Shown piece by piece: positions 13,381 to 30,661 of a stretch of DNA of 32,000 bases. Each line of letters begins with the position of its first letter. Position 1 is the stretch's first letter. The notes below the pieces were generated by a model that saw only the letters and a program-made list of their open reading frames with translations, searched no databases and was not told where the DNA came from. Location: positions 2,460,001-2,492,000 of the forward strand of contig JAIZWK010000001.1 of the NCBI GenBank assembly GCA_021498095.1. The letters run 5' to 3'. The DNA is from Candidatus Harpocratesius repetitus (GTDB lineage Archaea; Asgardarchaeota; Lokiarchaeia; Sigyniarchaeales; Promethearchaeaceae). A program made the position numbers and the translations under genes.

Positions 13381-13458
13381 ATGATAATGATAATTTTTTA
13401 CTGATCAAAACTGATCAAAAAATTTTTTGCTGTTGATAAGTTTTTTTCATATTTTTAA
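13381..13458 (-). repeat. Right arm of the inverted repeat, abutting the serine hydrolase stop codon
   Basis: See left arm. It includes a 10-bp tandem duplication CTGATCAAAA x2 (13401-13420). Confidence 0.8.
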
Positions 13459-14855
13459 TGCTTATGCAATAAATATTTGTCTATATTCACCTTTACTTGC
13501 AAATTGGAAGGATCTATGAAAAATTTTATCTTAATGTTCAGTTTTGGCCATCCTAAAGGAGAATAAAATTCTAATTTTTCTAAATTTGAAGGAATACAAA
13601 TAAAATCTACTGGTTTCAAGAATGATGGATCATTTATTGTAAATTTTAGAAACCCATTTTTTACTGTTAAATGACCTGTTACCACATCTCCATAAGATCC
13701 ATAATTTCCTTCTAAAATTTCAAGTTTTTGTGTAATCATTAATTCTGGGATTGCATCATAGATTTCCTTATCTAAAATAATTGCTAAAATGATGCGAGAG
13801 AGATTTTGAGCAATTGCACCCATATTTGAATTAATTGCAATCGAAATTCCGATTTTTAATTCTGGAATAAGTGCAGTATAATTTGAAAAATTTAATCCAT
13901 TTCCCTCAATATGAACAAGTTTGTTATTGAAAAAATTATCTTCAATGAACCATCCATATCCAAAACTTGCATTATTTGGTGAGTAGATTGAATTTTCTTC
14001 AAGATCAATATGTTTGGTCCAAATTTTTCTAATTGATTCTTTAGAGATTATTTTTTTACCATCATATATTCCATTATTTAACAAACATTCAAGATAGGCT
14101 TTCATCTCATTTATAGAACTAAATAGTCCTCTATTTGCATATTCAATTTCATAATCAAGCGTTTCAAAATGCTGTAAACTTTTATTTTCTTGATTATGAA
14201 TATATCCTTTAGCAAAATTTCCATCTTTATGGACATTATCTAAATGATAAGTAGATCTTTTCATTTGCAAAGGAGAAAGTATATTTTTTTTAATATAATC
14301 CGCATATTTATCTCCAGTTACTTTTTCAATAAGCGCAGCAAGAACAGAAAACATTGTGTCATTATAGAGAAATTTCTGCTCAGGGGGACATATAATTTGA
14401 GATTTTGCATGATTTAGGTATTGAAAAAAACTTGTCCAATCAGCAATAGGTAAAAATCTTTGATCCTTTTTCTTTAATCCCGCTGAAATTATTGCTCCAA
14501 AATTTAAATCTGCAATACCAGAAGAATTTGATAAAAGATGATGAATTTTTATTGGATGATCTGGCATTTCTACCATGAAATCTAAATATTTAGAAATGTT
14601 ATCATTTAGTGAGATTTTCTTTTTCTCTACTAATTGCATTATTGCTAAAACACAGAAGGTTTTGGAAACACTAATCATTTTTAATAAAGTATCGTTAGTC
14701 ATAGGCAGTATTTTTTCGAAATCTCTAATTCCAAATGAGTTAGTATAAAATTCTTGCCCATTATTAAATATTGTAATACTCAATCCTGGAATATTCGCAC
14801 CAATCATCATATCATTAATAACATATTCGATTTTTTCCAAGTAATCATTTTTCAT
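13455..14855 (-). CDS. Serine hydrolase, beta-lactamase/D-aminopeptidase (class C-like) family
   Basis: IPGLSITI, SxxK (SVSK), IHHLLSNSSG, YND variant of the YxN motif, IEKVTG, GYGW. The third motif is degenerate (HIEG). ATG 14855 is preferred to 14918. Confidence 0.88.
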   Translation of the reverse strand: MKNDYLEKIEYVINDMMIGANIPGLSITIFNNGQEFYTNSFGIRDFEKILPMTNDTLLKMISVSKTFCVLAIMQLVEKKKISLNDNISKYLDFMVEMPDHPIKIHHLLSNSSGIADLNFGAIISAGLKKKDQRFLPIADWTSFFQYLNHAKSQIICPPEQKFLYNDTMFSVLAALIEKVTGDKYADYIKKNILSPLQMKRSTYHLDNVHKDGNFAKGYIHNQENKSLQHFETLDYEIEYANRGLFSSINEMKAYLECLLNNGIYDGKKIISKESIRKIWTKHIDLEENSIYSPNNASFGYGWFIEDNFFNNKLVHIEGNGLNFSNYTALIPELKIGISIAINSNMGAIAQNLSRIILAIILDKEIYDAIPELMITQKLEILEGNYGSYGDVVTGHLTVKNGFLKFTINDPSFLKPVDFICIPSNLEKLEFYSPLGWPKLNIKIKFFIDPSNLQVKVNIDKYLLHKH

Positions 14856-14925
14856 TATAGAACCATCCTTATAAAAAAAATAAAAGAAATTTACTTGATA
14901 ATTTGAATTATAGATCATTTATATT

Positions 14926-16038
14926 TTAAGAAATAGAAAATTTCGTCCATTTATCAAGATATTCTTCTTTTACATCTGCGCCTAAACCTGGTTTTTCATT
15001 TACATTAATTAAACTCATGTTTTCTTTGCCGAATTCTATTCCACCAATAATCGGATCTTCAGCAATCATGAAAGCAGAATCAAGATCTAAAAAGAAAATA
15101 TTAGGTCGTGCAATTGCTAAATGCGCTGCTGCAGTTAAACCTAATCGACTTTCCGAAAAACATCCAATCATGCATTTTGCTCCATATGATTCTGCGATAG
15201 CATTAATTTTTAATCCTGTATGAATGCCTCCAGATTTACCTAATTTAATATTTAAATAATCTGCTGCACCAAGTTTACAAATTTTAAAGGCATCTATTTC
15301 ATTAAATACAGATTCATCTGCACAAACTGGAGTATTTATCTTTGAGCGTAAACGTGCCATATCTTCCAAATTCCATATGGGAAGTGGTTGTTCTATATAT
15401 AATAAGTTTAAATTCTCCATCAACCGTGCATTTTTTAATGATTCTGCTAAATCCCATCCTTGATTTGAATCAATTTTAAGTTCAATTTCATCTCCAATAA
15501 CCTCTCGTACACCTTTTACATGTTTATAATCAGTTAAACCAGGTCTTCCAGTTTTCATTTTGATTTCATTAAATCCTTGCTCTATGAATTTTCTTGCTTT
15601 ATTTTGCACATCTTCAACACTTTTTTCATGTCCCATTGTTTGATCTGTGCGTAGTTGATGGTTTTTTCCTCCAAGCAATTTATATATTGGTTGATTAGAT
15701 TCTTTTCCTAATAAATCCCACATTGCCATGTCAAAAGCAGAATGAATTGATGTATGAGAAGGAAGAGACCTTTTCAGTAGGCTAAGATTTTCTTCTATTG
15801 CTGTAGGATCTTTTCCTATTAATAATTTCCCAAGGAATTTTGCAGCTTCAATGCAAGTATTTTGTGTTTCTGCTGTAATGAATGAAAAGGGACTTGCTTC
15901 CCCCCATCCAATTAAATTCTCATCCGTATTTATTTTAATTAATACATTTTCTGCTGATGGTATTGAACCAATAGAAGTTGCAAAAACACTAGATAATTTC
16001 ATATTCATTTTATAAATATCAATACTGGTAATTCTCAT
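14926..16038 (-). CDS. Dipeptide epimerase (L-Ala-D/L-Glu epimerase type, YkfB/YcjG-like, enolase superfamily)
   Basis: GWGEASP, KxK (IKMK), metal ligands DSNQ / EQP / DES, KLGKSGG, C-terminal DLD motif characteristic of dipeptide epimerases. Confidence 0.9.
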   Translation of the reverse strand: MRITSIDIYKMNMKLSSVFATSIGSIPSAENVLIKINTDENLIGWGEASPFSFITAETQNTCIEAAKFLGKLLIGKDPTAIEENLSLLKRSLPSHTSIHSAFDMAMWDLLGKESNQPIYKLLGGKNHQLRTDQTMGHEKSVEDVQNKARKFIEQGFNEIKMKTGRPGLTDYKHVKGVREVIGDEIELKIDSNQGWDLAESLKNARLMENLNLLYIEQPLPIWNLEDMARLRSKINTPVCADESVFNEIDAFKICKLGAADYLNIKLGKSGGIHTGLKINAIAESYGAKCMIGCFSESRLGLTAAAHLAIARPNIFFLDLDSAFMIAEDPIIGGIEFGKENMSLINVNEKPGLGADVKEEYLDKWTKFSIS

Positions 16039-16093
16039 GTTATCACGCTTGTTAATTGTTTTTTGTTAATAATTGTAAATAAGCTCTCAAAAA

Positions 16094-17209
16094 TTATATT
16101 TTCCACATCCCTTCGTGATATATAAGTTGATCATCAACATATATTTTTGATGATGAAGTACTCATATCTTTCAAAATGTCCCAATGGATTGCAGAAATTG
16201 CTTGGCTACCTGTTTCTTTTATGCCATTTCCTAAAGCAAGATGAATTGTTCCACCAATTTTCTCATCAAAAAGCATACTTTTAGTAAAATTTTTTATAGT
16301 ATAATTTGTACCTATTGCAAATTCCCCAATATAATCGGCTCCCTCAATTTTTAATAAAGAATGAAGCAGATTTTCACCTTTAGAGGCACTTGCTTCTATC
16401 ACTCTTCCTTCCTTAAATTTTAAAGAAATATCTTCTATTTCCTGTCCTTGAAATATTCCTGGGAAAGTAAAGCGAATTTGGCCATTAAGTGAATTTTCTA
16501 CAGGACCTGTGAAAACTTCACCATCTGGAAGATTATGATGGCCTGCTGCATTTATCCATTTTCGACCCTTCACTGAAAAGGTCAAATCAGTATCTTCTCC
16601 TATTACATGAACTATTTTTCGATTATTATTCAAAAAATCCACATATCTTTGTTGTATTTCTTCCACTTCTTTCCATGATTTTGTTGGATTTGGTTCATTA
16701 AGTTTAATTGCACTTGCCACAAAATTAATATAACTATAAAGATCCATCCCAGCTTCTTGAGCTAATGAATTACATGGATAGGGAATAGCACTCCACTTAA
16801 ATTTTCCTTCATCACAACGCATTTCGCGCAATTTCCTTCGAATTGCTCTTTCTGGACTAGATTCATATAATGAAAGCTTTTTAGAATTAAAATTTTGGAA
16901 TTTTTTTGTATTATACTCAGAAAAAATATAGATCCTTCCATCAAAAGAATTAATCAGAGTATTTTCAACAGGAGAAACAAATTGAATTTGATCATCTGAA
17001 CCATAATGAAACAATAATTCTTCTAAACCAGATAATGAGAGATGGACGTAAGGATATGCTCCTTTCTTTAAGATTTCAACATATAAAGCTCGCATTAAAT
17101 CAGCAGCAATTTCAGAACCACTAATAAAAATTTTTTCTTTTGGTTGAACGTAAAGAGCATGTTCTACCGTTAGTTTTGCTAAACGTTCATAAAATTCACC
17201 CATATTCAT
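16094..17209 (-). CDS. Aminopeptidase, peptidase family M29 (AmpS/PepS-like)
   Basis: NLPDGEVF, IGEFAIGTN, LFDEKIGGTIHLALG, SAIHWD. Confidence 0.93.
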   Translation of the reverse strand: MNMGEFYERLAKLTVEHALYVQPKEKIFISGSEIAADLMRALYVEILKKGAYPYVHLSLSGLEELLFHYGSDDQIQFVSPVENTLINSFDGRIYIFSEYNTKKFQNFNSKKLSLYESSPERAIRRKLREMRCDEGKFKWSAIPYPCNSLAQEAGMDLYSYINFVASAIKLNEPNPTKSWKEVEEIQQRYVDFLNNNRKIVHVIGEDTDLTFSVKGRKWINAAGHHNLPDGEVFTGPVENSLNGQIRFTFPGIFQGQEIEDISLKFKEGRVIEASASKGENLLHSLLKIEGADYIGEFAIGTNYTIKNFTKSMLFDEKIGGTIHLALGNGIKETGSQAISAIHWDILKDMSTSSSKIYVDDQLIYHEGMWKI

Positions 17210-17337
17210 AATAATTATGAAAAATTTCCTTCAAATTAAAAGATTGTCTCAAGATTTAGAGAAAAATGGACCTACTAATAACTATTTCAAATATAAATAA
17301 TTGAAATATAATGGGTAAATCACATTCATTTATATTT

Positions 17338-17452
17338 CTACGAGAATATTTCTCCAGTAACTTTTTCTACCAATATTTTTTGTTAATCCAAATCTAACCT
17401 ATGATATTAAGATGAAATACTGAAATAATTTAAATGTTGGCATGGTTAGGGA
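17338..17452 (-). pseudogene. Possible short remnant of a third beta-lactamase-family hydrolase
   Basis: Minus-strand ILVEKVTGEIFS* and upstream FPNHA echo LIEKVTGDKYA and YLNHA in the 13455-14855 protein. There is a short DNA match to ~14305-14330. Confidence 0.35.
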
Positions 17453-17569
17453 ATTCATCTTCTTTATTCTCCAAAATTCATTTTTTTTTTGAAAAAATAA
17501 ATTAAAAAAATTTATACTCACAAATAAATAACTTTAATTTAATAATACAAGAGAGGAAAAGCTTAATCA

Positions 17570-18277
17570 ATGAAAAAAAAAAGAAATCGATCAGTTGATC
17601 TCAAAGAACAACAATTTAATCGAATAATTGCTGAAGCTAAAAAAATCTATGAAAATGAAGGTATTTCAGGATTAAATATTCAAAATATTGCAGAACAAGT
17701 GGGAACAGTTAAGGGGAATTTGTATAATTATGTAAAAAGCAAACGTGAATTATGGTATGCATTATTATATCAAGAAACAAATAAATTTTCCGAGAAAATG
17801 CTTGAAATAATTAAGAACCATAAAGATGATTCCATATCGCTTATCGAAAATCTAATTAAATTTATGATAATTGATTTTCAAATACAATTTCCATCAATAC
17901 ATAAAATGTTGAATGAAACACCACCATCTGCAAAGAAAATTGGAAAATTTGAACGCAAATTTAAAAATTTAAACTTTTTAAAACCAATAATCACAGCAAT
18001 TGATTTAGCTAAATCGCGAAATGAACTTATTCAATTGAAAAGTGAATATCTTGCTTCTTATTTTTGGATAATTTGTCATGGAACATATTACGAAATGAAT
18101 AATACGAAATCTATTGGTATGAATATCGATTTAAGAGACTTTGTCTTTAATCAGCTAAAGGATCAGTTGAAATATGTTTATACAACTGCTGCAAAAAGAG
18201 AAGAATATGTCTTTAAAGAGCGAAATTCACGAATCAGACGAGTTAATATTTCTAAGATAAGATCAATACCCTGGTAA
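17570..18277 (+). CDS. TetR/AcrR family transcriptional regulator
   Basis: RIIAEAKKIYENEGISGLNIQNIAEQVGTVKGNLYNYVKSKRELW is a TetR HTH. Confidence 0.92.
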   Translation: MKKKRNRSVDLKEQQFNRIIAEAKKIYENEGISGLNIQNIAEQVGTVKGNLYNYVKSKRELWYALLYQETNKFSEKMLEIIKNHKDDSISLIENLIKFMIIDFQIQFPSIHKMLNETPPSAKKIGKFERKFKNLNFLKPIITAIDLAKSRNELIQLKSEYLASYFWIICHGTYYEMNNTKSIGMNIDLRDFVFNQLKDQLKYVYTTAAKREEYVFKERNSRIRRVNISKIRSIPW

Positions 18278-18329
18278 AATGATCAATCTTTAAATATAAT
18301 TTCTGATGTAATTTTGGATAAAACATAAT

Positions 18330-18349
18330 TAAATGAACATTTTTCATTA
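18330..18349. promoter_or_regulatory. Candidate operator TAAATGAA-N5-TTCATTA, copy 1
   Basis: TAAATGAACATTTTTCATTA upstream of the 18653 hydrolase operon. The same 15 positions recur at 28190 and 28437. Confidence 0.6.
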
Positions 18350-18652
18350 AAATATTCAATAAAATTACCAAATATTTTATTATTGCTTCAATAGATTTGA
18401 TAATTAAACAAAAAAATCATAAAAATTTCATTAATCTTTCGTTTTTCATTGAATTTTTCTCTTAAATTATAGTTTTTGAGATTGATATCAAGATACCTAC
18501 ATTTCATAATATTAATAAACTACTAAGATTAACATATAAACAAACTCCGTTCATTTAATTCTAAAACGAGACAACTTTTTTTTTAGAACTAATAATGGTT
18601 TGGATATTAGCAATAATAAAAATTAACGTGAAAATCATCTTCATGTTAAAAT

Positions 18653-20071
18653 TTGGAGATAAAGACATTGATAAATCAAGAAATTCAATCAAAAATTGAG
18701 GAATTAATCATAAATAATTTACAAGAATCCCAAATTCCTGCATTAAGTATAGCTATTGTTGAAAACAATCAAGTAATTTATGCGAATGGCTTTGGAGCTC
18801 GCAGAATTCGAGGAAATTTACCCGCTAGTGAAAAAACATTATATGGGATCGGAAGTTCTACAAAATCTTTTACAGCTCTTGCAATAATGCAATTAGTTGA
18901 GGAAGAAAAAATCAATCTTGATGATCCAGTTCAGAAATACATTACATTTAAACTGGGTTCTGAAAAAAAACCAATCACAATTAGACATTTATTGTCTCAT
19001 TCCTCTGGAATACCTGATTTAGATGCATCTATTCGCTCTATTGTCGAAAAAGTATGTTTCCCAGATCCTCTTTTTCCCATGTCAAGTAAAAATGATTTTC
19101 TAAGACATGTAAATAGGGCACAATCGGAATTTTTCTTTGATCCTGGTGAACACTTCTTTTATAATAACGATATGTTTACTCTTTTGTTACTTATCATCGA
19201 AAAAATTACGGGTATGCCATTTGAGGAATATATACAGAAAAAAATCTTACTACCATTAGATATGAAAAGATCAACTTTCTCAAAAGAAGTTTTTGATAAC
19301 GATCCCTTAAACGATAAATTTACAGGATATATGATAAAACCTGGACCAGATGGAATTAATATGCAAGAAACGGATTTTCCATTTAATTGGCTACTCTATG
19401 CATGTGGAGGTTTAATTTCTTCAGTAGATGAAATGTCAAATTATCTTATCACAATGTTAAATAAAGGTGTTTACAATGGTAAAAAAATAATTTCTTCTAA
19501 ATATTTCGATGAATTGTGGAAAACTATTATATCAAGTCCTTATGGAGCTGGAAAAAATCCACAATATTGCCTTGGTTGGATACGAGAAGATGATTTCTTT
19601 AATACAACCTTGATTCATCATGGAGGAAATACAGGAATGTCTTCGAGTTACATGGCACTATTACCAGAAAAGAAAATAGGGGTTGTAATGGAATCAAATA
19701 CAAATTTTCTTTATTCAAGTACATTAACACGGGAAATTCTTACCTTATTATTAGGAAAGAATCTTGATGAATTAGATGTTTTTCATAGAAAGAAAATTCT
19801 ACAGAATATTTGTGGTGTTTATCATTCTTATCAAGGAATAAATAAATTAGAAGTTAACCTGCAAGGTGGAAAACTCTTCGGAACAATTACGTCTGGACCT
19901 TCATCTAATACTTTCCCTTTATATGCTCTAGATTTTGCTAAACTACGTTTTTCAATTCCAAAACCGTATTTTGGAAATGATCCAGGAATGGAATTTCAGT
20001 TTTTTGTATCTTCTGAATCAAATAAGGTTTTAGTAACAGCAGATCGATTCTTATTTCATAAAATAAATTAA
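18653..20071 (+). CDS. Serine hydrolase, beta-lactamase/D-aminopeptidase (class C-like) family
   Basis: IPALSIAIV, GSSTK (SxxK), IRHLLSHSSG, YNN, ACGGLISS, HGG; paralog of 13455-14855. TTG start. Confidence 0.92.
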   Translation: MEIKTLINQEIQSKIEELIINNLQESQIPALSIAIVENNQVIYANGFGARRIRGNLPASEKTLYGIGSSTKSFTALAIMQLVEEEKINLDDPVQKYITFKLGSEKKPITIRHLLSHSSGIPDLDASIRSIVEKVCFPDPLFPMSSKNDFLRHVNRAQSEFFFDPGEHFFYNNDMFTLLLLIIEKITGMPFEEYIQKKILLPLDMKRSTFSKEVFDNDPLNDKFTGYMIKPGPDGINMQETDFPFNWLLYACGGLISSVDEMSNYLITMLNKGVYNGKKIISSKYFDELWKTIISSPYGAGKNPQYCLGWIREDDFFNTTLIHHGGNTGMSSSYMALLPEKKIGVVMESNTNFLYSSTLTREILTLLLGKNLDELDVFHRKKILQNICGVYHSYQGINKLEVNLQGGKLFGTITSGPSSNTFPLYALDFAKLRFSIPKPYFGNDPGMEFQFFVSSESNKVLVTADRFLFHKIN

Positions 20072-20155
20072 CTTAAGTTGTTTTATTAGTGGGAAATTCG
20101 CACTTTTTTTTCCATTTTCACAGATTTTAACTATAATAATATGAGGGATAAATAA

Positions 20156-21994
20156 TTGAAATTTTCTGATGATTTACAAAAAATTCATTTTGGTTCGTAT
20201 TTGAAATTACGAAATATTGAATATCATGAATATTTAGAATTTTCTCAATACATTTCAATGAGAGACGGTATCCAGATTGCAGTTGATGTAGTAATTCCAC
20301 AATCATCAAAAAGTAATGAAAAATTTCCAACATTGCTTTATCAAACACGATATTGGCGAAATATCATCCCTCGAAAATTGTTTAAAAAAATATGGAGAAA
20401 AATAAATCCAAAAGGAGACCTAATAAAGCGTTTCTTCACAAATTATGGCTATGCAATGGTGCTAGCTGATGTAAGAGGGACTGGAGCATCATTTGGAACT
20501 AAAGATCATCCCTTTTCTAAAAATGAAATTGATGATAGCAAAGATATTTTGGATTGGATTATTTCACAATCATGGTCAAATGGAAAAGTTGGCACTTATG
20601 GAAATAGTTATCCAGGTACTGTGGCAGAATTAACTACTATTCATCATCATAAAGCATTAAAATGTGTTTTTGTTAGAGGAAATGAATTTGACTCATTCTC
20701 AGATATTTTTTTTCCAGGAGGTTTATTTCCTTCCGCTTTTTTCAAAGATTGGGGAGAAAAAACCAGAAACTTGGATCTAAATAAACCAAATCAATTTTTA
20801 ATGAAATTATTCACAAAGGGTGTAAAACCAGTAGATTCTGATAATCAAAGAATTCTTTTAAGGAAAGCAATTAAAGAACATAAAAAAAATGCGAATTTCT
20901 TTACTTCTTTAAAAAAAATACAATTTCGGGAAGATTCATTTGGTTCAACAAATTTAACTATCGATGACTTTAGTATTCACAGCAAGAGAAATCGAATTGA
21001 AAATTCGAATGTTCCGATATTTCACTGGGGTAGCTGGCTTGATGCCCAAGTAAGTAATGTTGTAATTCATAGATTTTTAAATTACAACATAATTCAAACT
21101 GGATTAATTGGATGTTGGGCACATGGAGGAGGAAATCCAGTAGTTCTTTCAAAAAAGGGAAAATATGAAATAGGGCTAGATCCTCTTTCTCAAATGGGGG
21201 AGATATTAAGATTTTTTGATTTTTACTTGAAAAATATGCATAATAATGGATGGACAGAGCAAAATAGAATAATTTATTATACAATTAAGGAAAAAAAATG
21301 GCAAACTACAAATAAATGGCCTCCAAATAATTGTTCTTCAAAAAGGCTTTTTTTTGGTAAAAATTCAAGACTAATTCCAAAAATGAATCCAAATTTATAT
21401 GGAAATACACCCTATAATGTAAGTACTAAACCAACAACTGGAAAACGCAATCGATATTACACTCAATATGGGGGAGGAAAAGTAAAGTATACAAATAGGG
21501 ATAAAGCAAGAAAATATTTTCTTTCTTTTATTTCAGAACCTATTGAAAATGATATTAAAATAATCGGTTATCCTGTAGTAAAGTTATACTTAACTTCATC
21601 ACAACCTGATGGGGCAATTTTTGTCTATTTGGAAGAAGTTTCTCCTTCTGGAGATATCTTCTACATTACTGAAGCCTTAATACGTTTAGGTTCTTGCAAA
21701 GAATCAAGTCCACCTTATATTACACCAATTCCTTATCATTCTTTCAAACGTGAAGATTATCATCAATTAAAAGAAAATGAAATAATATCTTTACACTTGG
21801 CGTTTATTCCAACTTCAATTGTATTAAAGAAAGGTTCAAGAATCCAAATATCAATATCTGGGAACGATTCTCAGACATTTGATGAAATTAATTTGAAGAA
21901 TAGAAAGAATCAGAAATATACAATTTACCATGACAAAACTCATATTTCTTATATAGATATCCCTGTTACAAATGATTCAATTCTTTTTTCTTAA
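20156..21994 (+). CDS. CocE/NonD family hydrolase (peptidase S15-like alpha/beta hydrolase)
   Basis: MRDGIQIAVDV, DVRGTGASFG, nucleophile GNSYPG, GCWAHG, C-terminal jelly-roll region (DGAIFVYLEEV, GSRIQISIS). Confidence 0.92.
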   Translation: MKFSDDLQKIHFGSYLKLRNIEYHEYLEFSQYISMRDGIQIAVDVVIPQSSKSNEKFPTLLYQTRYWRNIIPRKLFKKIWRKINPKGDLIKRFFTNYGYAMVLADVRGTGASFGTKDHPFSKNEIDDSKDILDWIISQSWSNGKVGTYGNSYPGTVAELTTIHHHKALKCVFVRGNEFDSFSDIFFPGGLFPSAFFKDWGEKTRNLDLNKPNQFLMKLFTKGVKPVDSDNQRILLRKAIKEHKKNANFFTSLKKIQFREDSFGSTNLTIDDFSIHSKRNRIENSNVPIFHWGSWLDAQVSNVVIHRFLNYNIIQTGLIGCWAHGGGNPVVLSKKGKYEIGLDPLSQMGEILRFFDFYLKNMHNNGWTEQNRIIYYTIKEKKWQTTNKWPPNNCSSKRLFFGKNSRLIPKMNPNLYGNTPYNVSTKPTTGKRNRYYTQYGGGKVKYTNRDKARKYFLSFISEPIENDIKIIGYPVVKLYLTSSQPDGAIFVYLEEVSPSGDIFYITEALIRLGSCKESSPPYITPIPYHSFKREDYHQLKENEIISLHLAFIPTSIVLKKGSRIQISISGNDSQTFDEINLKNRKNQKYTIYHDKTHISYIDIPVTNDSILFS

Positions 21995-22039
21995 AATAGA
22001 AAAAAAGTAAAAAAATTCTTAATTCACCAATTTACCTTC

Positions 22040-23401
22040 TTATTCTCTGAATAAATGACACCAAACACTATGATCCTCGTTAATTTGGATTTTACCAGGA
22101 TATTTATTTTCACATAATTCCAATTGTGAGTCTTTAAAGCTGCATCGTGGGTGAAAAGGGCAACCTCGAGGTGGATTAATTGGACTGGGAACTTCTCCTT
22201 CAAGAATAATACGCTTGATTTTATGTTCTGGATCAATTTCAGATCTTGCAGAAAGTAAGGCTTTAGTATATGGATGTTTTGGATTTTCAAATATTTCATC
22301 CACTTTGCCGTATTCAACCAATTTACCCAAGTACATTACAGCAATATTATCTGCAATATGATGAACAACAGATAAATTATGAGTAATAAATAAGTATCCA
22401 TATCCATAATTTGATTGAAGATCTTTTAATAAATTTAAAATTTGGGCTTGAACTGAAACATCTAATGCAGATGTTGGTTCATCTAATATAATTAATTTCG
22501 GATTGCTTGCTAATGCACGGGCAATTACAATTCTTTGTTTTTGTCCTCCAGAAAATTCATGTGGAAAACGATCAAGGTGTTCGCGTTTCATTGAAACTTG
22601 ATTAAGAAGAGCAAGTGCTTTATCCCGAAGTATATCTTTATCGGTAATCCCCATTAAATTTCTATAAGGTTCAGAAAGGATATCTACTACCTTCATTCGA
22701 GGATTCAATGCAGCATCAGGATCTTGAAAAACAAGTTGTATTTTTTGTCGTAATTGAGCATTAAAAACTTTTGGTAATTTCTCCTTCTCAAAAAAGATTT
22801 CTCCATCTTCTTTGGGAATTAGTTCAAGTAAGCTTTTTGCTATTGTTGATTTTCCACAACCACTCTCTCCAACTAAACCTAAGGTTTCTCCCGATTTTAT
22901 TGTGAATGATACACCATTAACCGCTTTTATTTCACCCACTTTATGTTTTAAAATACCTCCATAAATAGGATAATATACTTTCAGATTTTTTACTTGTAAA
23001 AGAGTTTCATATTTTTTTGTATTTTTAATTGATTGAAGTTTTTCAAAATCAATTTTTCGGATTATTATAAAACGAACTAAGATTAAACAAATAATCGTAA
23101 GAATTAATCCTGCAGAAAGAATTTTGTACCAAAAACCTCCTGTATATAGTGAAATTCCAAATTCGATATTCAAGATTGATAATCTAAAATTATTAAGTGA
23201 AAAAATAAAACCTATGATCAAACTTGCCAATCCAGGGATTAAACTTAAAATATGAATTATAATTAATTTGTCTTTCTGAATTAATTGAATTTTATCTCCC
23301 CAATTGCCAATAAAGATCGTTATGCTAAAAAAAACGATTAAACTAATAATAAAGAGAAAAATTGATATAAAATTGTCAGATAATTCTGTGTTAAGAATCA
23401 T
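22040..23401 (-). CDS. oppF: Oligopeptide ABC transporter ATP-binding protein with a fused N-terminal membrane domain
   Basis: GESGCGKS, FSGGQKQR, LDEP, oligo_HPY tail (HPYT...GCPFHPRC). The first ~120 aa contain about 3 hydrophobic helices. Confidence 0.9.
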   Translation of the reverse strand: MILNTELSDNFISIFLFIISLIVFFSITIFIGNWGDKIQLIQKDKLIIIHILSLIPGLASLIIGFIFSLNNFRLSILNIEFGISLYTGGFWYKILSAGLILTIICLILVRFIIIRKIDFEKLQSIKNTKKYETLLQVKNLKVYYPIYGGILKHKVGEIKAVNGVSFTIKSGETLGLVGESGCGKSTIAKSLLELIPKEDGEIFFEKEKLPKVFNAQLRQKIQLVFQDPDAALNPRMKVVDILSEPYRNLMGITDKDILRDKALALLNQVSMKREHLDRFPHEFSGGQKQRIVIARALASNPKLIILDEPTSALDVSVQAQILNLLKDLQSNYGYGYLFITHNLSVVHHIADNIAVMYLGKLVEYGKVDEIFENPKHPYTKALLSARSEIDPEHKIKRIILEGEVPSPINPPRGCPFHPRCSFKDSQLELCENKYPGKIQINEDHSVWCHLFRE

Positions 23402-23404
23402 TTG

Positions 23405-25381
23405 TTAATTCGCACTCCTTTTGGAATTTAGATTTTGGATTTTCTGTTCAATAGTATTATTTGATTTGTATAAATGACAAGCAACAAAATGATTTTTTTC
23501 TACTTCTATGATCTCTGGAGTAATGGATTCACATTCTGGAATTCTTTTTTCACATCTTGGATGAAATCGGCAACCAGAAGGGGGATAAATTAAATTTGGA
23601 ACAGAACCAGGAATTGTTGCTAATTTCTCTGTTTTTCGTGACACAACTGGAACTGCTGCGATTAAATTTTCTGTATAAGGATGTAGTGGATTATTGAAAA
23701 TACTCAGTGTATCTCCAGATTCAACTATTTTTCCACTATACATAACTGCGATTCTATCACATATTTGTGAAATGACCCCTAAATCATGCGAAATAAAGAG
23801 AATTGAAGTATTATATTTTCTTCGTAATTCAGTAATTAATTCTAATATTTGGGCTTGAATTGTAACATCTAAAGCGGTTGTTGGCTCATCTGCCAGTAAT
23901 AATTTCGGATTGCATGCTAATCCCATTGCTATCATAATTCGTTGTCGCATTCCTCCACTTAATTCATGAGGATAACGATCGTATATCTTTTCTGGGTCGG
24001 GTATCCCTACATCTTTCAAAATTTGAATTGACCAAAGTCTGGCAATATAATAAATTGAAGTTCTTTTTTCTAAATTAGATATTTGATTTTTTAATTCTTT
24101 CAAAGATTGAGTCAAATTTGCGTTATTATTAGGATTATTTTTAATCATTCTCTTTAGTTCTTCAATATCATTCTTGAGAGAATGAATTTTTTTTGTATTT
24201 TCTTGTGCTATCTTCATTAATTCCTTCTTTTTGTGTAAAAGATAAACTTCGGATATTTGATCTCCAACTTTAATAACAGGATTTATCGAATTAAGAGGAT
24301 CTTGAAAAATCATGGTTATCTTATTTCCCCTGTAATCTCTAATTTCATCTTTCGATTTTTCTAGGAGATTTTCTCCATTATAAATAATGGAACCATCTAT
24401 GATTTCTCCTGGTTTTCTAACTAATTGCAATATAGAAAGAGCAGTAACCGATTTACCACAACCAGTTTCCCCAACCAACCCAAGATTTTCGTTCTCATAA
24501 ATTTCAAAACTTACTTTTTCTACTGCTCGAACAATTCCTTCTTCTGTAAAAAAATAGGTGGTAAGATCCTTTACTTCTAAGACGGGCTTTTTCTCTTCAA
24601 TCTGCTCATCTATTGAAGAACCATTTAAAATCTTAGAATCTACTTCATTTTCAAAATAATAATCTGAATTAATTTTCATAATAGATTTTTTAACTAATAA
24701 AAAAGCAAATATGTAAAGGATAATCAAGATCCCATATCCATTTATTTCAAATAAATATCCTCTTCTCACAATGCCAAAATAAAGTATTTGAATACTCCAG
24801 ATGCACCCTGAGATGATTGTTGCAATAAAATTAATTTTAGAGATTATTTCTGGTTGAATTCTTTTTGATTCTGATTTGAGAATATTAATTATTTTTGAAG
24901 TCAAATTACATATGCCTAAAATTAAGAAAGTCCACCAAAAGCCCAGCTTCATCTCTCGAATATAAGATACATTGAGAATTTTAAAAATTGAAAATAAAAT
25001 ACCAAGAAATGCAAGAAAGACCAATGATATCAGATGATATTTCTTTAGTTCTTTCATATATTTATTTAAATTACTCTTTCTGAGTATATTTATTAGAATA
25101 CTATAGGATATCAAAGCAGTAATCGCTAATTGTAAAAAGAAAGGGAATGGAATCTGAATAAATTTTTCAAAAAACCAGCGAAAAATAAAACTAAGGATAT
25201 TTCCAGTAAGAATAATTATAGGTATTTTATGATTAAACTCATATTCGACCTGTTTTTCTTTATCTATAATTGAAAATTCATTAAATTTTAAGTAAAGATA
25301 AGATATTATCCCCATAATCAAAACTTGTTCAATAATAATAATATTGAATCTTGATGCAGTGTACTCACTTAATAATGTCAT
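23405..25381 (-). CDS. oppD: Oligopeptide ABC transporter ATP-binding protein with a fused multi-pass membrane domain and coiled-coil insert
   Basis: GETGCGKS, LSGGMRQR, ADEP, HPYT...GCRFHPRC. The first ~240 aa have about 6-7 hydrophobic helices, and there is a ~55-aa insert after the Q-loop. Confidence 0.9.
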   Translation of the reverse strand: MTLLSEYTASRFNIIIIEQVLIMGIISYLYLKFNEFSIIDKEKQVEYEFNHKIPIIILTGNILSFIFRWFFEKFIQIPFPFFLQLAITALISYSILINILRKSNLNKYMKELKKYHLISLVFLAFLGILFSIFKILNVSYIREMKLGFWWTFLILGICNLTSKIINILKSESKRIQPEIISKINFIATIISGCIWSIQILYFGIVRRGYLFEINGYGILIILYIFAFLLVKKSIMKINSDYYFENEVDSKILNGSSIDEQIEEKKPVLEVKDLTTYFFTEEGIVRAVEKVSFEIYENENLGLVGETGCGKSVTALSILQLVRKPGEIIDGSIIYNGENLLEKSKDEIRDYRGNKITMIFQDPLNSINPVIKVGDQISEVYLLHKKKELMKIAQENTKKIHSLKNDIEELKRMIKNNPNNNANLTQSLKELKNQISNLEKRTSIYYIARLWSIQILKDVGIPDPEKIYDRYPHELSGGMRQRIMIAMGLACNPKLLLADEPTTALDVTIQAQILELITELRRKYNTSILFISHDLGVISQICDRIAVMYSGKIVESGDTLSIFNNPLHPYTENLIAAVPVVSRKTEKLATIPGSVPNLIYPPSGCRFHPRCEKRIPECESITPEIIEVEKNHFVACHLYKSNNTIEQKIQNLNSKRSAN

Positions 25382-25404
25382 TTTTTCATTTAACCTCTAT
25401 ATTA

Positions 25405-26538
25405 TTATGATATATATCTTGGATCCAAGGCATCCCGCAAACCATCCCCGATAAGCATAAATCCTAAGACGGTAATAGAAATAAAGAAACCAGGCCATAA
25501 TACCGCCCATGGGGCGACCTGTAACATTGCAGCACCTACATTTATATCTCTCCCCCATTCAACAATGTTGGGTTCTCCCAGACCAATAAAGTTTAAAGAA
25601 GCAATTCCCAAAATTGTTGACCCTAAATCGAATGTTGCTGCGATGACGATAGGAGATATTGAATTTGGTAATAAATATTTAAACATAATTTTGAAATCTC
25701 TAGCACCAGAGACTTTAGCTGCTTCTATATATGTTTTATTTTTCTCTTGTAATACAGAACCACGCGTTAATCGAGCAAATTCTGGAATTAAAAGTATACT
25801 AAATGCAATAAGTATATTTTCCATGGTTTTTCCCAAAATTCCGATAATTACCATTGCTAAAATCAATCCTGGAAAAGACATGATAATATCAATAATCCTC
25901 ATTATAAGATTATCAATAAATCCTCCAAAATATGCTGCAATTAAACCAATAATTACTCCAATAATCAATCCAAGAGAAATAGCAATAAGTCCAGAAGTTA
26001 ATGATGCACGTGACCCCCAGATTAATCGTCCTAAAACATCTCGACCAAATTCAGTCGTTCCAAAAAGATGAGCAGATGAAGGAGCCTCAAAATCTCCCGC
26101 AAATATATTAATTGCCACATCCAAATAGGAATATGGAGACAACCATGGCGCAAAAACCGCCAATGTAATCATAATTAATATTATAATCAAACCAACAATT
26201 GAAAGTGGAGTTAATAATTTCCGAAATATCGAACGTTTTGATTTATTTTTAGCAATTTCTTTTTCCAATGAGAGAACTTTTTCTGATTTTTTACTAAAGA
26301 AAAATTTGAAATAAATCTTTAATGAATTTTCATCGTGTTCTCGATTTAAAACGTTCCAATCGGTATAACTAGAGGTTAGTTGATTTGGGAGAAATAGAAA
26401 TCTAAGTATATTTTTCAAAGTATCAAATCTATTATTTTCTTTAAATGGAGATTTTGAAAAGGTTTTTTTTCTATCTTTTAAGATATTTTGATTAAAAGAA
26501 GCACCCAAATCATTTGTTTTTAGTTGTTTTTTATTCAT
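25405..26538 (-). CDS. oppC: Oligopeptide ABC transporter permease
   Basis: HLFGTTEFGRDVLGRL, EAA motif YIEAAKVSGA, PWAVLWPG. ATG 26538 overlaps the oppB stop (ATGAATAA). Confidence 0.92.
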   Translation of the reverse strand: MNKKQLKTNDLGASFNQNILKDRKKTFSKSPFKENNRFDTLKNILRFLFLPNQLTSSYTDWNVLNREHDENSLKIYFKFFFSKKSEKVLSLEKEIAKNKSKRSIFRKLLTPLSIVGLIIILIMITLAVFAPWLSPYSYLDVAINIFAGDFEAPSSAHLFGTTEFGRDVLGRLIWGSRASLTSGLIAISLGLIIGVIIGLIAAYFGGFIDNLIMRIIDIIMSFPGLILAMVIIGILGKTMENILIAFSILLIPEFARLTRGSVLQEKNKTYIEAAKVSGARDFKIMFKYLLPNSISPIVIAATFDLGSTILGIASLNFIGLGEPNIVEWGRDINVGAAMLQVAPWAVLWPGFFISITVLGFMLIGDGLRDALDPRYIS

Positions 26539-27574
26539 ACACAATCCTCGGGTCAATAATTGTATAAATAATGTCTGCAATAAGATTACTGAAAATATTT
26601 ATAACCCCAATAACAATAACAATGCCAATAATCATCCAATAATCGTTAGTTTCAATGGCTTTTACAAGTCCATAACCTATTCCTTTATAGTTGAATGTCA
26701 TCTCAATAATTGCTGAACCTGCTAAAATACCACCAATTCTATTAATTGCAATTGTAACTGTTGGAATAAGTGCATTTCTCAAGGCATGTTTATTATAAAC
26801 AGATTTTTCACTTGCACCTTTCGCTCGAGATGTGCGAATATAATCATTTTCTAAAACATCCAGCATACTAGCTCGTGTCTGTCGAGTAATTGTTGCAAAA
26901 GAAAGGGCAGTTAAACATAATACAGGAAGAATCATATGAATTAAAGCATCTTTTAGTAAATATTGATCATTTGCAAGAATACTATCTATTATTCGAAATC
27001 CAGTTACAAATGGAGGATCAGCACCTCCAGGAGTTTTAACACCATATACTGGAAGAGAAATCCAATCTCCAGTAGCATCAGGGAGAATTATTCCAAAAAG
27101 ATACTGAAAAAGCATCCCTAAAAAGAAACTTGGTAATGCTACAAGCAGAACAGCGAAAACTCGAATTAATGTATCTTGCCATTTATCCTTATACTTGACA
27201 GAAATTAAACCTGTTTTAATTCCAATAATTGGTACCAAAACGATAGGAATGATTGCTATTTCAATAGTTCTAGGCAAAGCAATTCGGATATAGTCTGAAA
27301 CTTTCTCATTTGGTGAAACACTCGAGGAGATTCCTAAATCTCCATGAAAGAAATTAATAAAATATGTTTTAAATTGAATATACCAAGGATCATTCAAATG
27401 GAATTTTTCTTGATAAGCAGCGATTACTTCAGGTGGCGTTCCTAAAGGAAAATTACTGGAAGGATCACCCGGCATAAGTTGAGCAAAGATCCAAGTTAAA
27501 ACCATCAAAATAAGAATCATAGGAATCGCTAAAAGTATACGTTTGATAATATAAATCATCATTTTATTTACCAT
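26531..27574 (-). CDS. oppB: Oligopeptide ABC transporter permease
   Basis: LMPGDP, GDLGIS, ALPRTIE, YIRTSRAKG, HALRNAL, NLIADIIYTIIDPRI. Confidence 0.93.
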   Translation of the reverse strand: MVNKMMIYIIKRILLAIPMILILMVLTWIFAQLMPGDPSSNFPLGTPPEVIAAYQEKFHLNDPWYIQFKTYFINFFHGDLGISSSVSPNEKVSDYIRIALPRTIEIAIIPIVLVPIIGIKTGLISVKYKDKWQDTLIRVFAVLLVALPSFFLGMLFQYLFGIILPDATGDWISLPVYGVKTPGGADPPFVTGFRIIDSILANDQYLLKDALIHMILPVLCLTALSFATITRQTRASMLDVLENDYIRTSRAKGASEKSVYNKHALRNALIPTVTIAINRIGGILAGSAIIEMTFNYKGIGYGLVKAIETNDYWMIIGIVIVIGVINIFSNLIADIIYTIIDPRIVYE

Positions 27575-27579
27575 TTTCT

Positions 27580-28119
27580 TTAGTTCACTTCCTTTTCTAT
27601 AACATAATCTTTAGTTTTTGGCATTAAAGGGATCAATTGGATAACGCCTTGTTTAAGAAGTTTATATTGTTTAAATTTCCGACCGATTAGTGCACCTATT
27701 AAGAGTATGGTAAAAAGAATTAAAAAATTCAAATAACCTTGAAAAAAACCAAAAATAAGAATAAAAGGATTGATAGAAAAACCAAATTCTTCCCAGTACC
27801 ATAACACAGAGAAAATAATAATTACAGATCCCAATCTTAAAACTTGTTTTATTCCTATAATCGAAATATCTTCTTGATAAACAAGAAAAGCACTTGTTAC
27901 TATGAGAATAAGAATTAAAATTCCATGATAAATTTCAAAATAAAGTTGATAAAACCATATTAACCTTTCATCTGTATTGTAATTTAGATAATTACAAATT
28001 ATCCCAAAGAAAATAAAATGAATAATAATTACGGATATACTAAAATTGCCAATTCTTTTGAAATTTAGAGAAATTTCCTTTTTTTTTAGAAAATCAATCA
28101 ATTCCTTCTTCTCTTTCAT
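27580..28119 (-). CDS. Hypothetical membrane protein (4-5 TM), first gene of the opp operon
   Basis: Hydrophobic 179-aa ORF, 5 nt from the oppB start, same strand. Confidence 0.75.
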   Translation of the reverse strand: MKEKKELIDFLKKKEISLNFKRIGNFSISVIIIHFIFFGIICNYLNYNTDERLIWFYQLYFEIYHGILILILIVTSAFLVYQEDISIIGIKQVLRLGSVIIIFSVLWYWEEFGFSINPFILIFGFFQGYLNFLILFTILLIGALIGRKFKQYKLLKQGVIQLIPLMPKTKDYVIEKEVN

Positions 28120-28189
28120 TGTTTCACTTCCAATTATACATGAATAAAAATCATTTTCATTTAAAAAACTTAATTAATTAATTTACTAT

Positions 28190-28209
28190 TAAATGAATTA
28201 TGTTCATTA
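28190..28209. promoter_or_regulatory. Candidate operator TAAATGAA-N5-TTCATTA, copy 2
   Basis: TAAATGAATTATGTTCATTA, 70 bp upstream of the leftward opp operon. Confidence 0.6.
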
Positions 28210-28436
28210 GAAAAAGAATAAAATGTCAATCAGGTCAAATAATTCTTTTAATTATTCGTTAAAAACAGTTATTAAATTGTAATAAAGATTGATAAAATTG
28301 AAAACAATAATAATAGATATCTGGAAATAGTTTTTAAACAATATTGTAAATTGAATTAATAAAGATTATAAGGATGTTTTCATAAAATCTTGAGTACTAG
28401 CGCTTTTTTATAATAAAGTAAAAATAAAATAAATTA

Positions 28437-28456
28437 TAAATGAATATTATTCATTA
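28437..28456. promoter_or_regulatory. Candidate operator TAAATGAA-N5-TTCATTA, copy 3
   Basis: TAAATGAATATTATTCATTA in the divergent opp/oppA intergenic region. Confidence 0.6.
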
Positions 28457-28807
28457 ATAAATAATCAAATTACAACTAAATCATTAGAATAAAATCATAT
28501 TTTTTAATGTAATTCGCAAATATGAAATATATGACTTTCAGATTTAACATGATATATTAAATTTACAATTTGAAATTAGAAAACAAAATAGGACAAGACA
28601 TTTCATTTGTTTACCAAAGATTTTTAAATATATTTGTCAATGGAAGAAATAGATAACTTGTATTCATTTATATAGGTTATCAATTTAGATTTCAATCATT
28701 ATTTTCTAAACGAAAAATCTATTGATGTGGAAACATCTTTGGTGTTTTTTTTTAGTGGCGAAAAATTCTTGGAAATGATTTTAATTCAAAAATTGGAATG
28801 AGCAATA

Positions 28808-30661
28808 ATGAATAAAACAAAAAAAACTATGATTTTTGGATTGTTGTTGGGGTTTTTAATGGTTATGGCTATGCAAACTCATGAAAGATATTATGATTTT
28901 TCAAAATTAGGAATTCCTGATAGTGCAGAAGATTCTGATGAACTTTCGTTTACATATGCCTCAAAATTATCCGCTGAGATGGATACATTTGATCCAATGT
29001 TTTTTACATTGAATACGGAACAACATATAATTAATCAAGTAGCAGAACCTTTATTTGGGAAATTATCAACAGATGGTGATTATGAACCAATTCTTGCAGA
29101 CTCAATTACTCAAATTGATACTGTTACCTATAAAGTCTCATTGAAAGAAAATATCACCTTTCAAGATGGAAGTGAAATGAATGCCAGTGCAGTTGAATGG
29201 AATTTTCGACGATTGTATAATGCGGTAACTTATTTATCTTCTAGTTTAGCAGATACAATGTACATTTCTTCTGATATTTTTCGAGGATTAAGTTATCTTG
29301 ACTTGAGTTGGGTTCCAGAAGGTGCACCTGTTTATATTATAAACGAAACAAAAGTAATTGATAATTATAATGTAGAATTTAAATTGAATGTTCCTTATGA
29401 TATTTATTCGATTTTCGAAGATGTATTCATTATCTCACCGACAACTCATGCAGATTTTATTAATGCAACAATGACTACGGACGATGGATTAGTTGGAACT
29501 GGAGCTTACACCATTGAGAGTTATTCAGTAACAGAGAGTGAAGTTATACTTAAAGCTTATGAAAACTATTGGGGTGGAGCTCCTGATGTTAAAAAATTAA
29601 TCTTTTCTTTTGTTGAAAATGATGATGCACGACACATTTCATTTTTGGCGGGAGAAATTGATATGATTGATGCTCCAGATAATGATCAACTTAAAGATGC
29701 TGAAAACATCACAATCATGGAAGCTGGTGCAGATCCTTCATCCTTTTATATTGCTTTATTTGATACAATTGATATAAAAGTTAGAGAAGCTTTGAATTTT
29801 GCATTTGATTATAATTATATAATAGAAGAAGTTAAAGCAAATGCCTCAGTCCGATCTGGTGGAGCAATTTTTAAATCTGTTGATTACCATAATGATACTT
29901 TGGATTTACCAGGATATGATTTAGAATATGCAAGACAAGTCCTCATAGATGCAGGAATCGCACCGTCATCAGCAGATTCATGGTCAGATACTGATTGGCA
30001 AACAATAGCTGATGGAGAATCTCCATTATATTCAATCAAAATTGGTTATATTTCACCATTATTTGATGATTATATTGTTGTTTTTAATGATGCTTGCCGA
30101 AATTTGGGAATTAAACTTGATTCTATTTCATATGATCAAGCCAATTTCATTGGATTTATCACTTCAAATAGCGACGAGGATATTAAAAATACTTTTGATT
30201 GTTTTGTAATGGGAGTCGGCTTTGGAACATCTATCTACCATCTATTAATGCGTTTGCACTTAAGTACAGGATTCTTTAATATTGCTACTCTCAATGATAC
30301 AATAGTAGATGATTTGATCAACGATTTCTTAACTGCAAGTAATAATGCAGAACGTCAAGATATTGCAAATCAAATTGCAGATCGAATTCAAAATGTTCTT
30401 TTTGCATATATTTGGATTGATCAAGCAAAAAACCAAATTGCATATCAAAATAAATGGACTGGAATAAATCCATATATCTTTCTTAGTCGAACTGTAAAAT
30501 TAGCTGGGAGCTCTTCAGATGATACTGGAAATGATGATTCTGGTGAAAAAATAGGAATTCCTGGATATTCAACTGGTTTTATAGGAATTGCTGGAATGCT
30601 TTCAATATTATTCATAACTCGTAAACGAAAACAGAACAACATAAAAACAAACAAATTGTAA
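28808..30661 (+). CDS. oppA: Peptide ABC transporter substrate-binding protein (family 5) with a Loki-CTERM-like C-terminal anchor
   Basis: Signal peptide, TFDP, EPLF...LA, L.ENITFQDGS..NASAV.WNF, VGTGAY, ENYWGG, VREALNFAFD. Ends with a D/G/S-rich linker + IPGY + TM helix + RKRK. Confidence 0.9.
   Translation: MNKTKKTMIFGLLLGFLMVMAMQTHERYYDFSKLGIPDSAEDSDELSFTYASKLSAEMDTFDPMFFTLNTEQHIINQVAEPLFGKLSTDGDYEPILADSITQIDTVTYKVSLKENITFQDGSEMNASAVEWNFRRLYNAVTYLSSSLADTMYISSDIFRGLSYLDLSWVPEGAPVYIINETKVIDNYNVEFKLNVPYDIYSIFEDVFIISPTTHADFINATMTTDDGLVGTGAYTIESYSVTESEVILKAYENYWGGAPDVKKLIFSFVENDDARHISFLAGEIDMIDAPDNDQLKDAENITIMEAGADPSSFYIALFDTIDIKVREALNFAFDYNYIIEEVKANASVRSGGAIFKSVDYHNDTLDLPGYDLEYARQVLIDAGIAPSSADSWSDTDWQTIADGESPLYSIKIGYISPLFDDYIVVFNDACRNLGIKLDSISYDQANFIGFITSNSDEDIKNTFDCFVMGVGFGTSIYHLLMRLHLSTGFFNIATLNDTIVDDLINDFLTASNNAERQDIANQIADRIQNVLFAYIWIDQAKNQIAYQNKWTGINPYIFLSRTVKLAGSSSDDTGNDDSGEKIGIPGYSTGFIGIAGMLSILFITRKRKQNNIKTNKL

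Follow-up and report, generated by a model that had tools for sequence, protein, structure and literature searches.

Enzymes of the locus

We analysed a 32,000-nucleotide stretch (the window; G000:C1:2460001-2492000) of the genome of the Asgard archaeon Candidatus Harpocratesius repetitus, which consists of one contig of 4.36 Mb and is 93.6% complete. By its kinship in genome searches, the host falls into the family of Promethearchaeum syntrophicum MK-D1 (Promethearchaeota) but into another genus. Within this window, 17 kb of DNA encodes two S12-family serine peptidases (S12a and S12b), an enolase-superfamily dipeptide epimerase, an M29 aminopeptidase, an S15 hydrolase of the CocE/NonD family, a TetR-family regulator and a complete Opp/Dpp peptide importer. 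This gene list had been put forward in an original prediction made from the DNA sequence, together with the proposal that the locus scavenges bacterial cell-wall or other D-residue peptides. Gene identities were assigned by Pfam and NCBIfam profile searches, and every gene of the list was confirmed at its coordinates.

One minus-strand unit runs from M29 through the epimerase to S12a, with the epimerase separated from M29 by a 55-bp gap and from S12a by a 7-bp gap. On the plus strand lie TetR and, after it, S12b and S15. A second minus-strand unit, from 28119 down to 22040, carries orf179, OppB, OppC, OppD and OppF in that order, and OppA is on the plus strand, divergent from this opp operon (Table 1). 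Genome copy numbers were counted by tblastn. The epimerase and S15 genes were single-copy in the 4.36-Mb genome, and CubicO genes numbered three, two of them at the locus within 8.5 kb. The genome also holds three M29 paralogues and approximately three other Opp-type gene sets.

Table 1. Genes and candidate operator sites of the locus, in window coordinates
Feature	Position	Strand	Basis or remark
S12a, divergent CubicO/Pab87-like S12 serine hydrolase	13455..14918	-	Beta-lactamase 161 bits; Pab87_oct 27.6 bits
Enolase-superfamily dipeptide epimerase	14926..16038	-	MR_MLE_N and MR_MLE_C; YkfB alignment; single copy
M29 aminopeptidase, AmpS/PepS/AmpT family	16094..17209	-	PF02073 249 bits (cut-off 27)
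TetR-family regulator, presumed local repressor	17570..18277	+	PF00440 (TetR_N) 27 bits (cut-off 24); single copy (tblastn)
Palindrome AATGAA-N5-TTCATT, candidate operator	18332..18348		between tetR and S12b
S12b, canonical CubicO/Pab87-type S12 peptidase	18653..20071	+	Beta-lactamase 200 bits; Pab87_oct 35.9 bits
S15 CocE/NonD-family serine hydrolase	20156..21994	+	TIGR00976 283 bits (cut-off 66)
OppF/DppF-type ATPase	22040..23401	-	Pfam/NCBIfam; 453 aa
OppD-type ATPase	23405..25381	-	Pfam/NCBIfam; 658 aa
OppC permease	25405..26580	-	Pfam
OppB permease	26531..27574	-	Pfam
orf179, 179-aa membrane protein, first opp operon gene	27580..28119	-	4-5 hydrophobic helices
Palindrome copy 2	28192..28208		73 bp upstream of orf179
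Palindrome copy 3	28439..28455		divergent opp promoter region
OppA/DppA-type family-5 solute-binding protein	28808..30661	+	N-terminal hydrophobic anchor or signal

The two SxxK serine hydrolases of the original prediction are present, and both can now be assigned to the Pab87/CubicO group of S12 peptidases. Each carries the C-terminal lipocalin-like octamerisation domain Pab87_oct (PF13969) above its cut-off of 27 bits. The best solved relative of both is Pyrococcus abyssi Pab87 (PDB 2QMI; E 1.2e-78 for S12b and 6.7e-56 for S12a), and the structures that follow it score lower by ~150 bits for S12b and ~120 bits for S12a. An N-terminal hydrophobic segment was found in neither S12a nor S12b, in agreement with the earlier claim that both lack a signal peptide; OppA has one.

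S12a and S12b are 36% identical, and we compared their motifs in an alignment that took in Asgard and Bathyarchaeia CubicO homologues. The penicillin-recognising motifs SxxK/YxN/HxG are complete in S12b, with SSTK at 68, FFYNN at 168 (Y170-N-N) and HGG at 323. S12a, which likely starts at Met22, has SVSK at 83 and YND, but its third motif fails, reading HIEG with I-E-G at the HGG position. SxxK and YxN were conserved in all aligned members, and HGG in all but S12a. Two of the motifs of CubicO proteins appear as conservative variants: the FFYLN position is FFYNN in S12b and FLYND in S12a, and the C-terminal ERY position is DRF..HK in S12b, DKY..HK in S12a and DRY..HK in most Asgard members. The motif YAEAF/L was not kept in this alignment, where the position reads DASIRS in S12b, NFGAII in S12a and ELDGNV in other Asgard members. 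No S12a orthologue above 38% identity was found among the 60 relatives surveyed. Judged by these alignments, S12a is a divergent, lineage-specific paralogue that may or may not be catalytic.

A two-copy model of S12b passed our binding test, with an interface score (ipSAE) of 0.68 against 0.00 for the best control; among proteins of known structure, 20 of the 30 solved as pairs and 1 of the 23 solved as single chains reached the pass mark. Contacts agreed by at least 88% between runs, with a predicted local distance difference test score (pLDDT) of at least 88. The modelled interface sets loop 121-124 against the C-terminus at 462-467, the same pair of elements as in Pab87. Because the pass may reflect memory of 2QMI, we take the model as a likeness to Pab87 and not as proof of assembly. 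A third CubicO-like paralogue (G000:C1:2378544-2379923), 38% identical to S12b, lies ~80 kb upstream of the window. It stands alone, with an S33 hydrolase 1.3 kb off and nothing related in the scanned neighbourhood.

Pab87 is a self-compartmentalising S12 peptidase that assembles as a D4 octamer named 'CubicO'. It acts as a D-aminopeptidase, with D-Ala-p-nitroanilide (D-Ala-pNA) favoured over L-Ala-pNA, and as a DD-carboxypeptidase on muropeptides, from which it takes off terminal D-Ala, including that of pentapeptides (PMC2651629). Its gene adjoins a Dpp (dipeptide ATP-binding cassette, ABC) transporter in the neighbourhood PAB0086-PAB0095, and its authors proposed in 2009 a role for CubicO proteases in digesting D-amino-acid-containing debris of bacterial cells (Delfosse et al. 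2009, PMC2651629). By homology to Pab87, S12a and S12b would be expected to have D-stereospecific activity. The likeness extends to the locus, since in both cases a cytoplasmic S12 peptidase with a C-terminal octamerisation domain adjoins an Opp/Dpp importer in an archaeon without murein, and the proposed role, digestion of environmental or bacterial D-residue peptides, is the same. However, the Asgard locus holds two paralogues, in one of which the third motif is degenerate, and an epimerase, S15, M29 and TetR replace the Pyrococcus aminotransferase and D-aminoacylase. YAEAF is not kept here and ERY is replaced by DRF or DKY, and the host is an Asgard archaeon instead of a hyperthermophilic euryarchaeon. 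The original prediction had offered its 'non-orthologous enzyme set' as a novelty. This part did not stand, as the core enzyme is homologous to Pab87 and the same hypothesis, with the transporter synteny, was published for the Pab87 family in 2009. The concept is therefore unchanged since that work, and is here moved to an Asgard genome.

The epimerase was aligned to Bacillus subtilis YkfB (1JPM/1TKK), and all catalytic and ammonium-binding residues of YkfB are kept. K160, K162, K265, D190, E216, D241, D318 and D320 of the Asgard protein correspond to YkfB K160, K162, K268, D191, E219, D244, D321 and D323, and comprise the hallmarks of the family: the KxK motif and second lysine as acid/base, the Asp/Glu/Asp metal ligands and the DxD at the end of strand 8. 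The DxD signature separates dipeptide epimerases from N-acyl-amino-acid racemases, and in our alignment the N-succinyl-amino-acid racemase 2P88 lacks it at the site of D318-L-D320. The DLD motif on which the original assignment was based is thus borne out, and implies a substrate with a free N-terminal amine, i.e. a dipeptide.

Dipeptide epimerases act on the C-terminal residue of dipeptides, and specificities are diverse across members of a family that was first defined by Ala-Glu epimerases tied to peptidoglycan recycling (PMC13338154). The original prediction had leaned towards such a murein (L-Ala-D/L-Glu) specificity, and here the evidence pointed elsewhere. The Asgard epimerase has a glycine at the position of YkfB Arg24, as do 3JVA, 3Q45 and 10 of 10 Asgard homologues with N-termini shown; in YkfB, R24 reportedly binds the gamma-carboxylate of Glu. 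Both NCBIfam Ala-Glu equivalog cut-offs were missed (NF041118, 196 vs 500; NF011708, 91 vs 343). The best structure matches were the dipeptide epimerases 3JVA from Enterococcus faecalis (E 1e-73, 252 bits) and 3Q45 from Cytophaga hutchinsonii (E 3e-66, 227 bits), with YkfB behind, and the Cytophaga enzyme also has an F-x-ESRLG segment in common with the Asgard epimerase. These two enzymes are said to have been crystallised with Xaa-Tyr and with Ala-Val or Ala-Ala dipeptides. The matches are distant, and the host contexts differ. A reading as DgcA (N-acetyl-D-Glu racemase) was rejected because the score of 138 bits lies below the cut-off of 400 and the genome has no DgcN. Because of Gly24, the nearest structures and the sub-cut-off Ala-Glu and DgcA equivalog scores, the substrate is probably not Ala-Glu.

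Candidate operator sites and companion genes

The palindrome AATGAA-N5-TTCATT (extended TAAATGAA..TTCATTA) occurs at three exact sites in the window and at 10 in the whole genome. All three locus copies are intergenic, and they alone among the ten have TA...A flanks; the other seven, without the extended flanks, were set aside. The positions of the copies at the tetR-S12b and opp regions argue for co-regulation of S12b-S15 with the opp genes. The palindromes fit a predicted operator for the adjacent TetR, which would act on them as a repressor. A TetR homologue near a CubicO paralogue in another genome (G007) had no matching palindrome, and sites with two mismatches numbered 3 against 1.6 expected. 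A second case of a TetR gene with an S15 peptide module was seen at locus L128 (8592-13792, G004:C17), an operon of MFS_2, S15, an M20 peptidase and a TetR homologue, in which S15 is 38-40% and TetR 30-31% identical to the genes described here. A gene of the AAT/C45 family abuts that operon convergently.

In the S15 hydrolase, S151 (within GNSYPG), D296 and H323 were invariant or nearly so in 28 homologues, and D296 is the predicted catalytic acid. By tblastn the protein is the sole full-length homologue in the genome, to which Pfam adds two marginal partial matches. The M29 aminopeptidase matched AmpS (PDB 1ZJC) with E 1.7e-19, and acidic and His residues align.

A family-5 solute-binding protein, two permeases and a pair of ATPases, each with an oligo_HPY region at its C-terminus, make up the importer. 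Both ATPases have in-frame N-terminal extensions before a complete nucleotide-binding domain, of ~120 residues with 3 hydrophobic helices in OppF and of ~240-270 residues with 6-7 hydrophobic helices in OppD. OppD has an insertion as well, because its ABC_tran match covers 215 residues for a 137-position profile. The membrane protein orf179 had no Pfam or NCBIfam match and no paralogue in the genome.

Recurrence of the gene pairings in other genomes

Conservation was surveyed across the 60 relatives and at 80 CubicO loci from 80 species. An adjacent CubicO-epimerase-S15 trio was found, at 36-48% identity, in three genomes of another Promethearchaeota family (G042, G021 and G052). Three further genomes have a CubicO gene next to an epimerase gene, namely G001, which is of the same genus, and G049 and G036, where the pair lies at the end of a contig. 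In a Promethearchaeia metagenome-assembled genome (MAG) the order was S9, MFS_2, S15, M28, a second epimerase, AsnC, MFS_2, epimerase, S12 and a further S15. Phylogenetic analysis placed the Asgard epimerases in two well-supported, paralogous clades, both with S12 or S15 genes as neighbours; as the tree's backbone was unresolved, we make no claim of independent acquisition. The whole 17-kb arrangement was not conserved across the 60 relatives or the 80 CubicO loci, so that the conservation expected in the original prediction applies to sub-modules. From the pairing counts among the 80 loci, given below, we regard these sub-modules as recurrent and the 17-kb assembly as lineage-specific.

Related gene sets were also present in bacteria. 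An uncultured marine gammaproteobacterium (L105, 687-11787) has, in one direction, CubicO, M24, DgcN (488 bits vs a cut-off of 480), a pair of epimerases, an aldehyde dehydrogenase (Aldedh), a second S12 gene and a D-aminopeptidase of family M55, and one of its epimerases is 51% identical to the Asgard enzyme. In Paremcibacter, S12 and M28 genes are followed by a 53%-identical epimerase and then by a class IV aminotransferase and DUF1611. D-amino-acid islands with DgcN have been described in marine proteobacteria (Yu et al. 2023, as cited in PMC12363236). The Asgard locus resembles these islands in combining the same epimerase clade (51-53% identity) with CubicO/S12 genes, which in the islands accompany DgcN, M55 or a class IV aminotransferase. 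It differs in that the Asgard genome has no DgcN and that its epimerase falls below the DgcA cut-off. In L105, the epimerase-like proteins that follow DgcN are not DgcA equivalogs.

Some other contexts were recorded in the same survey. A Helarchaeota MAG encodes an Asp/Glu racemase two genes from its CubicO gene. At four loci (G026:C31, G050:C97, G035:C387 and G060:C17), S15 homologues or an epimerase lie a few kb from a distant enolase-superfamily paralogue of ~395-405 aa and 24-26% identity. The contexts of two bacterial S15 homologues (P0244 and P0247) were unrelated and uninformative, and CubicO genes P0122, P0128 and P0170 were isolated.

Proposed function and alternatives

The genome was also searched for known partners of such pathways. 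A six-frame search of the 93.6%-complete genome found no M55 (DppA), S66 LdcA or NlpC/P60, and neither DgcN/DUF1611 nor a penicillin-binding protein (PBP) transpeptidase was found in the genome. The murein-peptide accessory set of Bacillus and E. coli is missing from the genome, and endogenous murein recycling is unlikely because no PBP transpeptidase was found. One M14 carboxypeptidase and one asp_race-type racemase are encoded. Two class IV aminotransferases were rejected as D-amino-acid enzymes, both being branched-chain aminotransferases of the ilvE_II type, and an Ala_racemase_N match was rejected as alanine racemase because its 233-aa open frame is too short for the full enzyme; we take this frame to be probably YggS-like. 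Enzymes for free D-amino acids could be dispensed with, since the epimerase would invert the residue at the dipeptide stage.

The S12 homology to Pab87, the DxD epimerase, the recurrent CubicO/epimerase/S15 linkage and the gammaproteobacterial island with DgcN and M55 uphold the general idea of the original prediction, uptake and intracellular breakdown of D-residue peptides. With moderate confidence, we propose that the locus serves the regulated import and cytoplasmic breakdown of oligopeptides containing D-residues. Compared with murein Ala-Glu peptides, the range of substrates is probably wider or a different one, and generic D-residue peptides fit better. We infer the order of the steps and the D-specificity of these enzyme copies as follows. 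Anchored OppA would capture peptides and OppBCDF would bring them in. In the cytoplasm S12b, perhaps together with the altered S12a, would strip D-residues off peptide ends in the manner of Pab87, and the S15 hydrolase would trim what S12 leaves. The epimerase would turn dipeptides with a terminal D-residue into L-L dipeptides, which the M29 aminopeptidase would split, the L-amino acids then being fermented. By binding the AATGAA-N5-TTCATT palindromes, the TetR-family repressor would tie the S12b-S15 operon to the genes of the importer. The B. subtilis dpp/ykfABCD genes offer a parallel, in that a peptide ABC importer is combined with a D-stereospecific peptidase and an enolase-superfamily epimerase that readies D-residue dipeptides for L-peptidases. 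Unlike in Bacillus, the D-peptidase would be S12/CubicO and not M55, the search described above found no M55, S66 or NlpC/P60, and the epimerase has no equivalent of YkfB Arg24.

More tentatively, CubicO, epimerase and S15 may form a conserved Asgard 'stereo-inversion' module, in which S15 and CubicO would cut peptides to L-D dipeptides for the epimerase to invert; we regard this as possible but doubtful. If it were true, peptide-fermenting Asgard archaea could use racemised or bacterial necromass peptides without racemases for free D-amino acids, the S15 member would be a new D-tolerant exopeptidase, and S12a might take part in mixed CubicO particles as a subunit without catalysis.

In culture, Asgard archaea grow slowly beside bacterial partners, feeding on amino acids and peptides, and D-amino acids are a sizeable fraction of old sedimentary organic matter. 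A regulated importer and enzyme set for D-residue peptides would provide a testable nutritional link from Asgard archaea to bacterial cell debris, and would bring together in one physiological setting the CubicO, S15 and non-Ala-Glu dipeptide epimerase families, which are widespread but obscure in function. What is new is the occurrence in an Asgard archaeon, a CubicO-epimerase-S15 trio that recurs, the non-Ala-Glu epimerase, a second CubicO paralogue that is degenerate, and palindromes specific to the locus.

Several observations weigh against import and breakdown of D-residue peptides. The histidine of the third motif is absent from S12a in the motif alignment. The kcat/Km of Pab87 on D-Ala-pNA is very low, 3.9 M-1 s-1 (PMC2651629), and the physiological substrate is therefore unproven even for the reference enzyme. 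Most CubicO genes stand alone: within 10 kb, an epimerase was found at 9 of the 80 loci, S15 at 4 and a full OppBCDF at one, which belongs to a Thermoproteota genome. Two close relatives (G013 and G002) keep a 76-77%-identical epimerase amid sugar genes or with a pyridoxal phosphate (PLP) enzyme and GntR. No palindrome copy was present at the promoter region of M29-epimerase-S12a, and the genome yielded no enzyme for handling D-Ala.

The alternative that best survives is an ordinary L-peptide nutrition locus, in which Opp would take up normal oligopeptides, S12, S15 and M29 would be general exopeptidases and the epimerase would have a side role or a non-peptide substrate. The lineage of the host ferments peptides, plain peptide modules (such as MFS_2, S15, M20 and TetR in G004) hold the S15 homologues of other Promethearchaeota, and the partner aminopeptidases differ by locus (M1, M20, M28 or M29). 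The isolation of most CubicO genes, the several Opp systems and the three M29 genes in the genome are also in keeping with it. However, a dipeptide epimerase is of use only where D-residues occur, and here it is single-copy and tightly placed between M29 and S12a. The closest characterised S12 relative is D-stereospecific, and the epimerase clade sits with DgcN and M55 in bacteria. We consider this alternative rather unlikely.

Strict recycling of murein peptides is less probable again and would be a surprising outcome. In this reading, tri- or tetrapeptides containing L-Ala-gamma-D-Glu would be imported and handled as by E. coli mpaA-ycjG or Bacillus ykf, and L-Ala-D/L-Glu would be the substrate of the epimerase. 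It gains from the removal of terminal D-Ala from muropeptide pentapeptides by Pab87 and from the Ala-Glu enzymes of peptidoglycan recycling by which the epimerase family was first defined (PMC13338154). Against it stand the glycine for YkfB R24, the missed Ala-Glu equivalog cut-offs, the closer match to 3JVA and 3Q45 than to YkfB, and a genome in which S66 LdcA, NlpC/P60 and M55 were not found.

We regard as highly improbable a cluster for hydrolysis of esters, xenobiotics or beta-lactams under a TetR sensor, made up of S12 and CocE/NonD esterases or amidases with an exporter of the major facilitator superfamily (MFS). In its favour, carboxylesterases, alpha-amino-acid ester hydrolases and cocaine esterase are found among the S12 and S15 families, small xenobiotics are often the signal for TetR regulators, and an MFS gene lies 3' of OppA. 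Yet the esterase matches are far weaker than the match to Pab87, both S12 proteins carry Pab87_oct, the epimerase, M29 and Opp are peptide-specific, and beta-lactams would have no target where there is no PBP transpeptidase. That unrelated genes lie together by chance, in a genome rich in peptidases, would agree with the unconserved 17-kb arrangement and the gene remnants nearby, but it has very little probability. Two genes without a second copy in the genome and two of the three CubicO paralogues sit inside 8.5 kb of 4.36 Mb, the same pairings are seen in a different Promethearchaeota family and in a gammaproteobacterial MAG, and 3 of the 10 genomic palindromes are at the locus with flanks that the other seven lack.

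The MFS gene (MFS_1/MFS_3 transporter, 30976-31998) is on the same strand as OppA and continues past the end of the window. On the other side, an open reading frame at 12885-13319 matches the patatin domain only in its final third (profile positions 158-190 of 191), and is the remnant of a patatin gene because stops precede it in all frames. An intact patatin gene is present two genes from the CubicO homologue at another locus (L033), and mobile-element remnants lie close to the locus described here.

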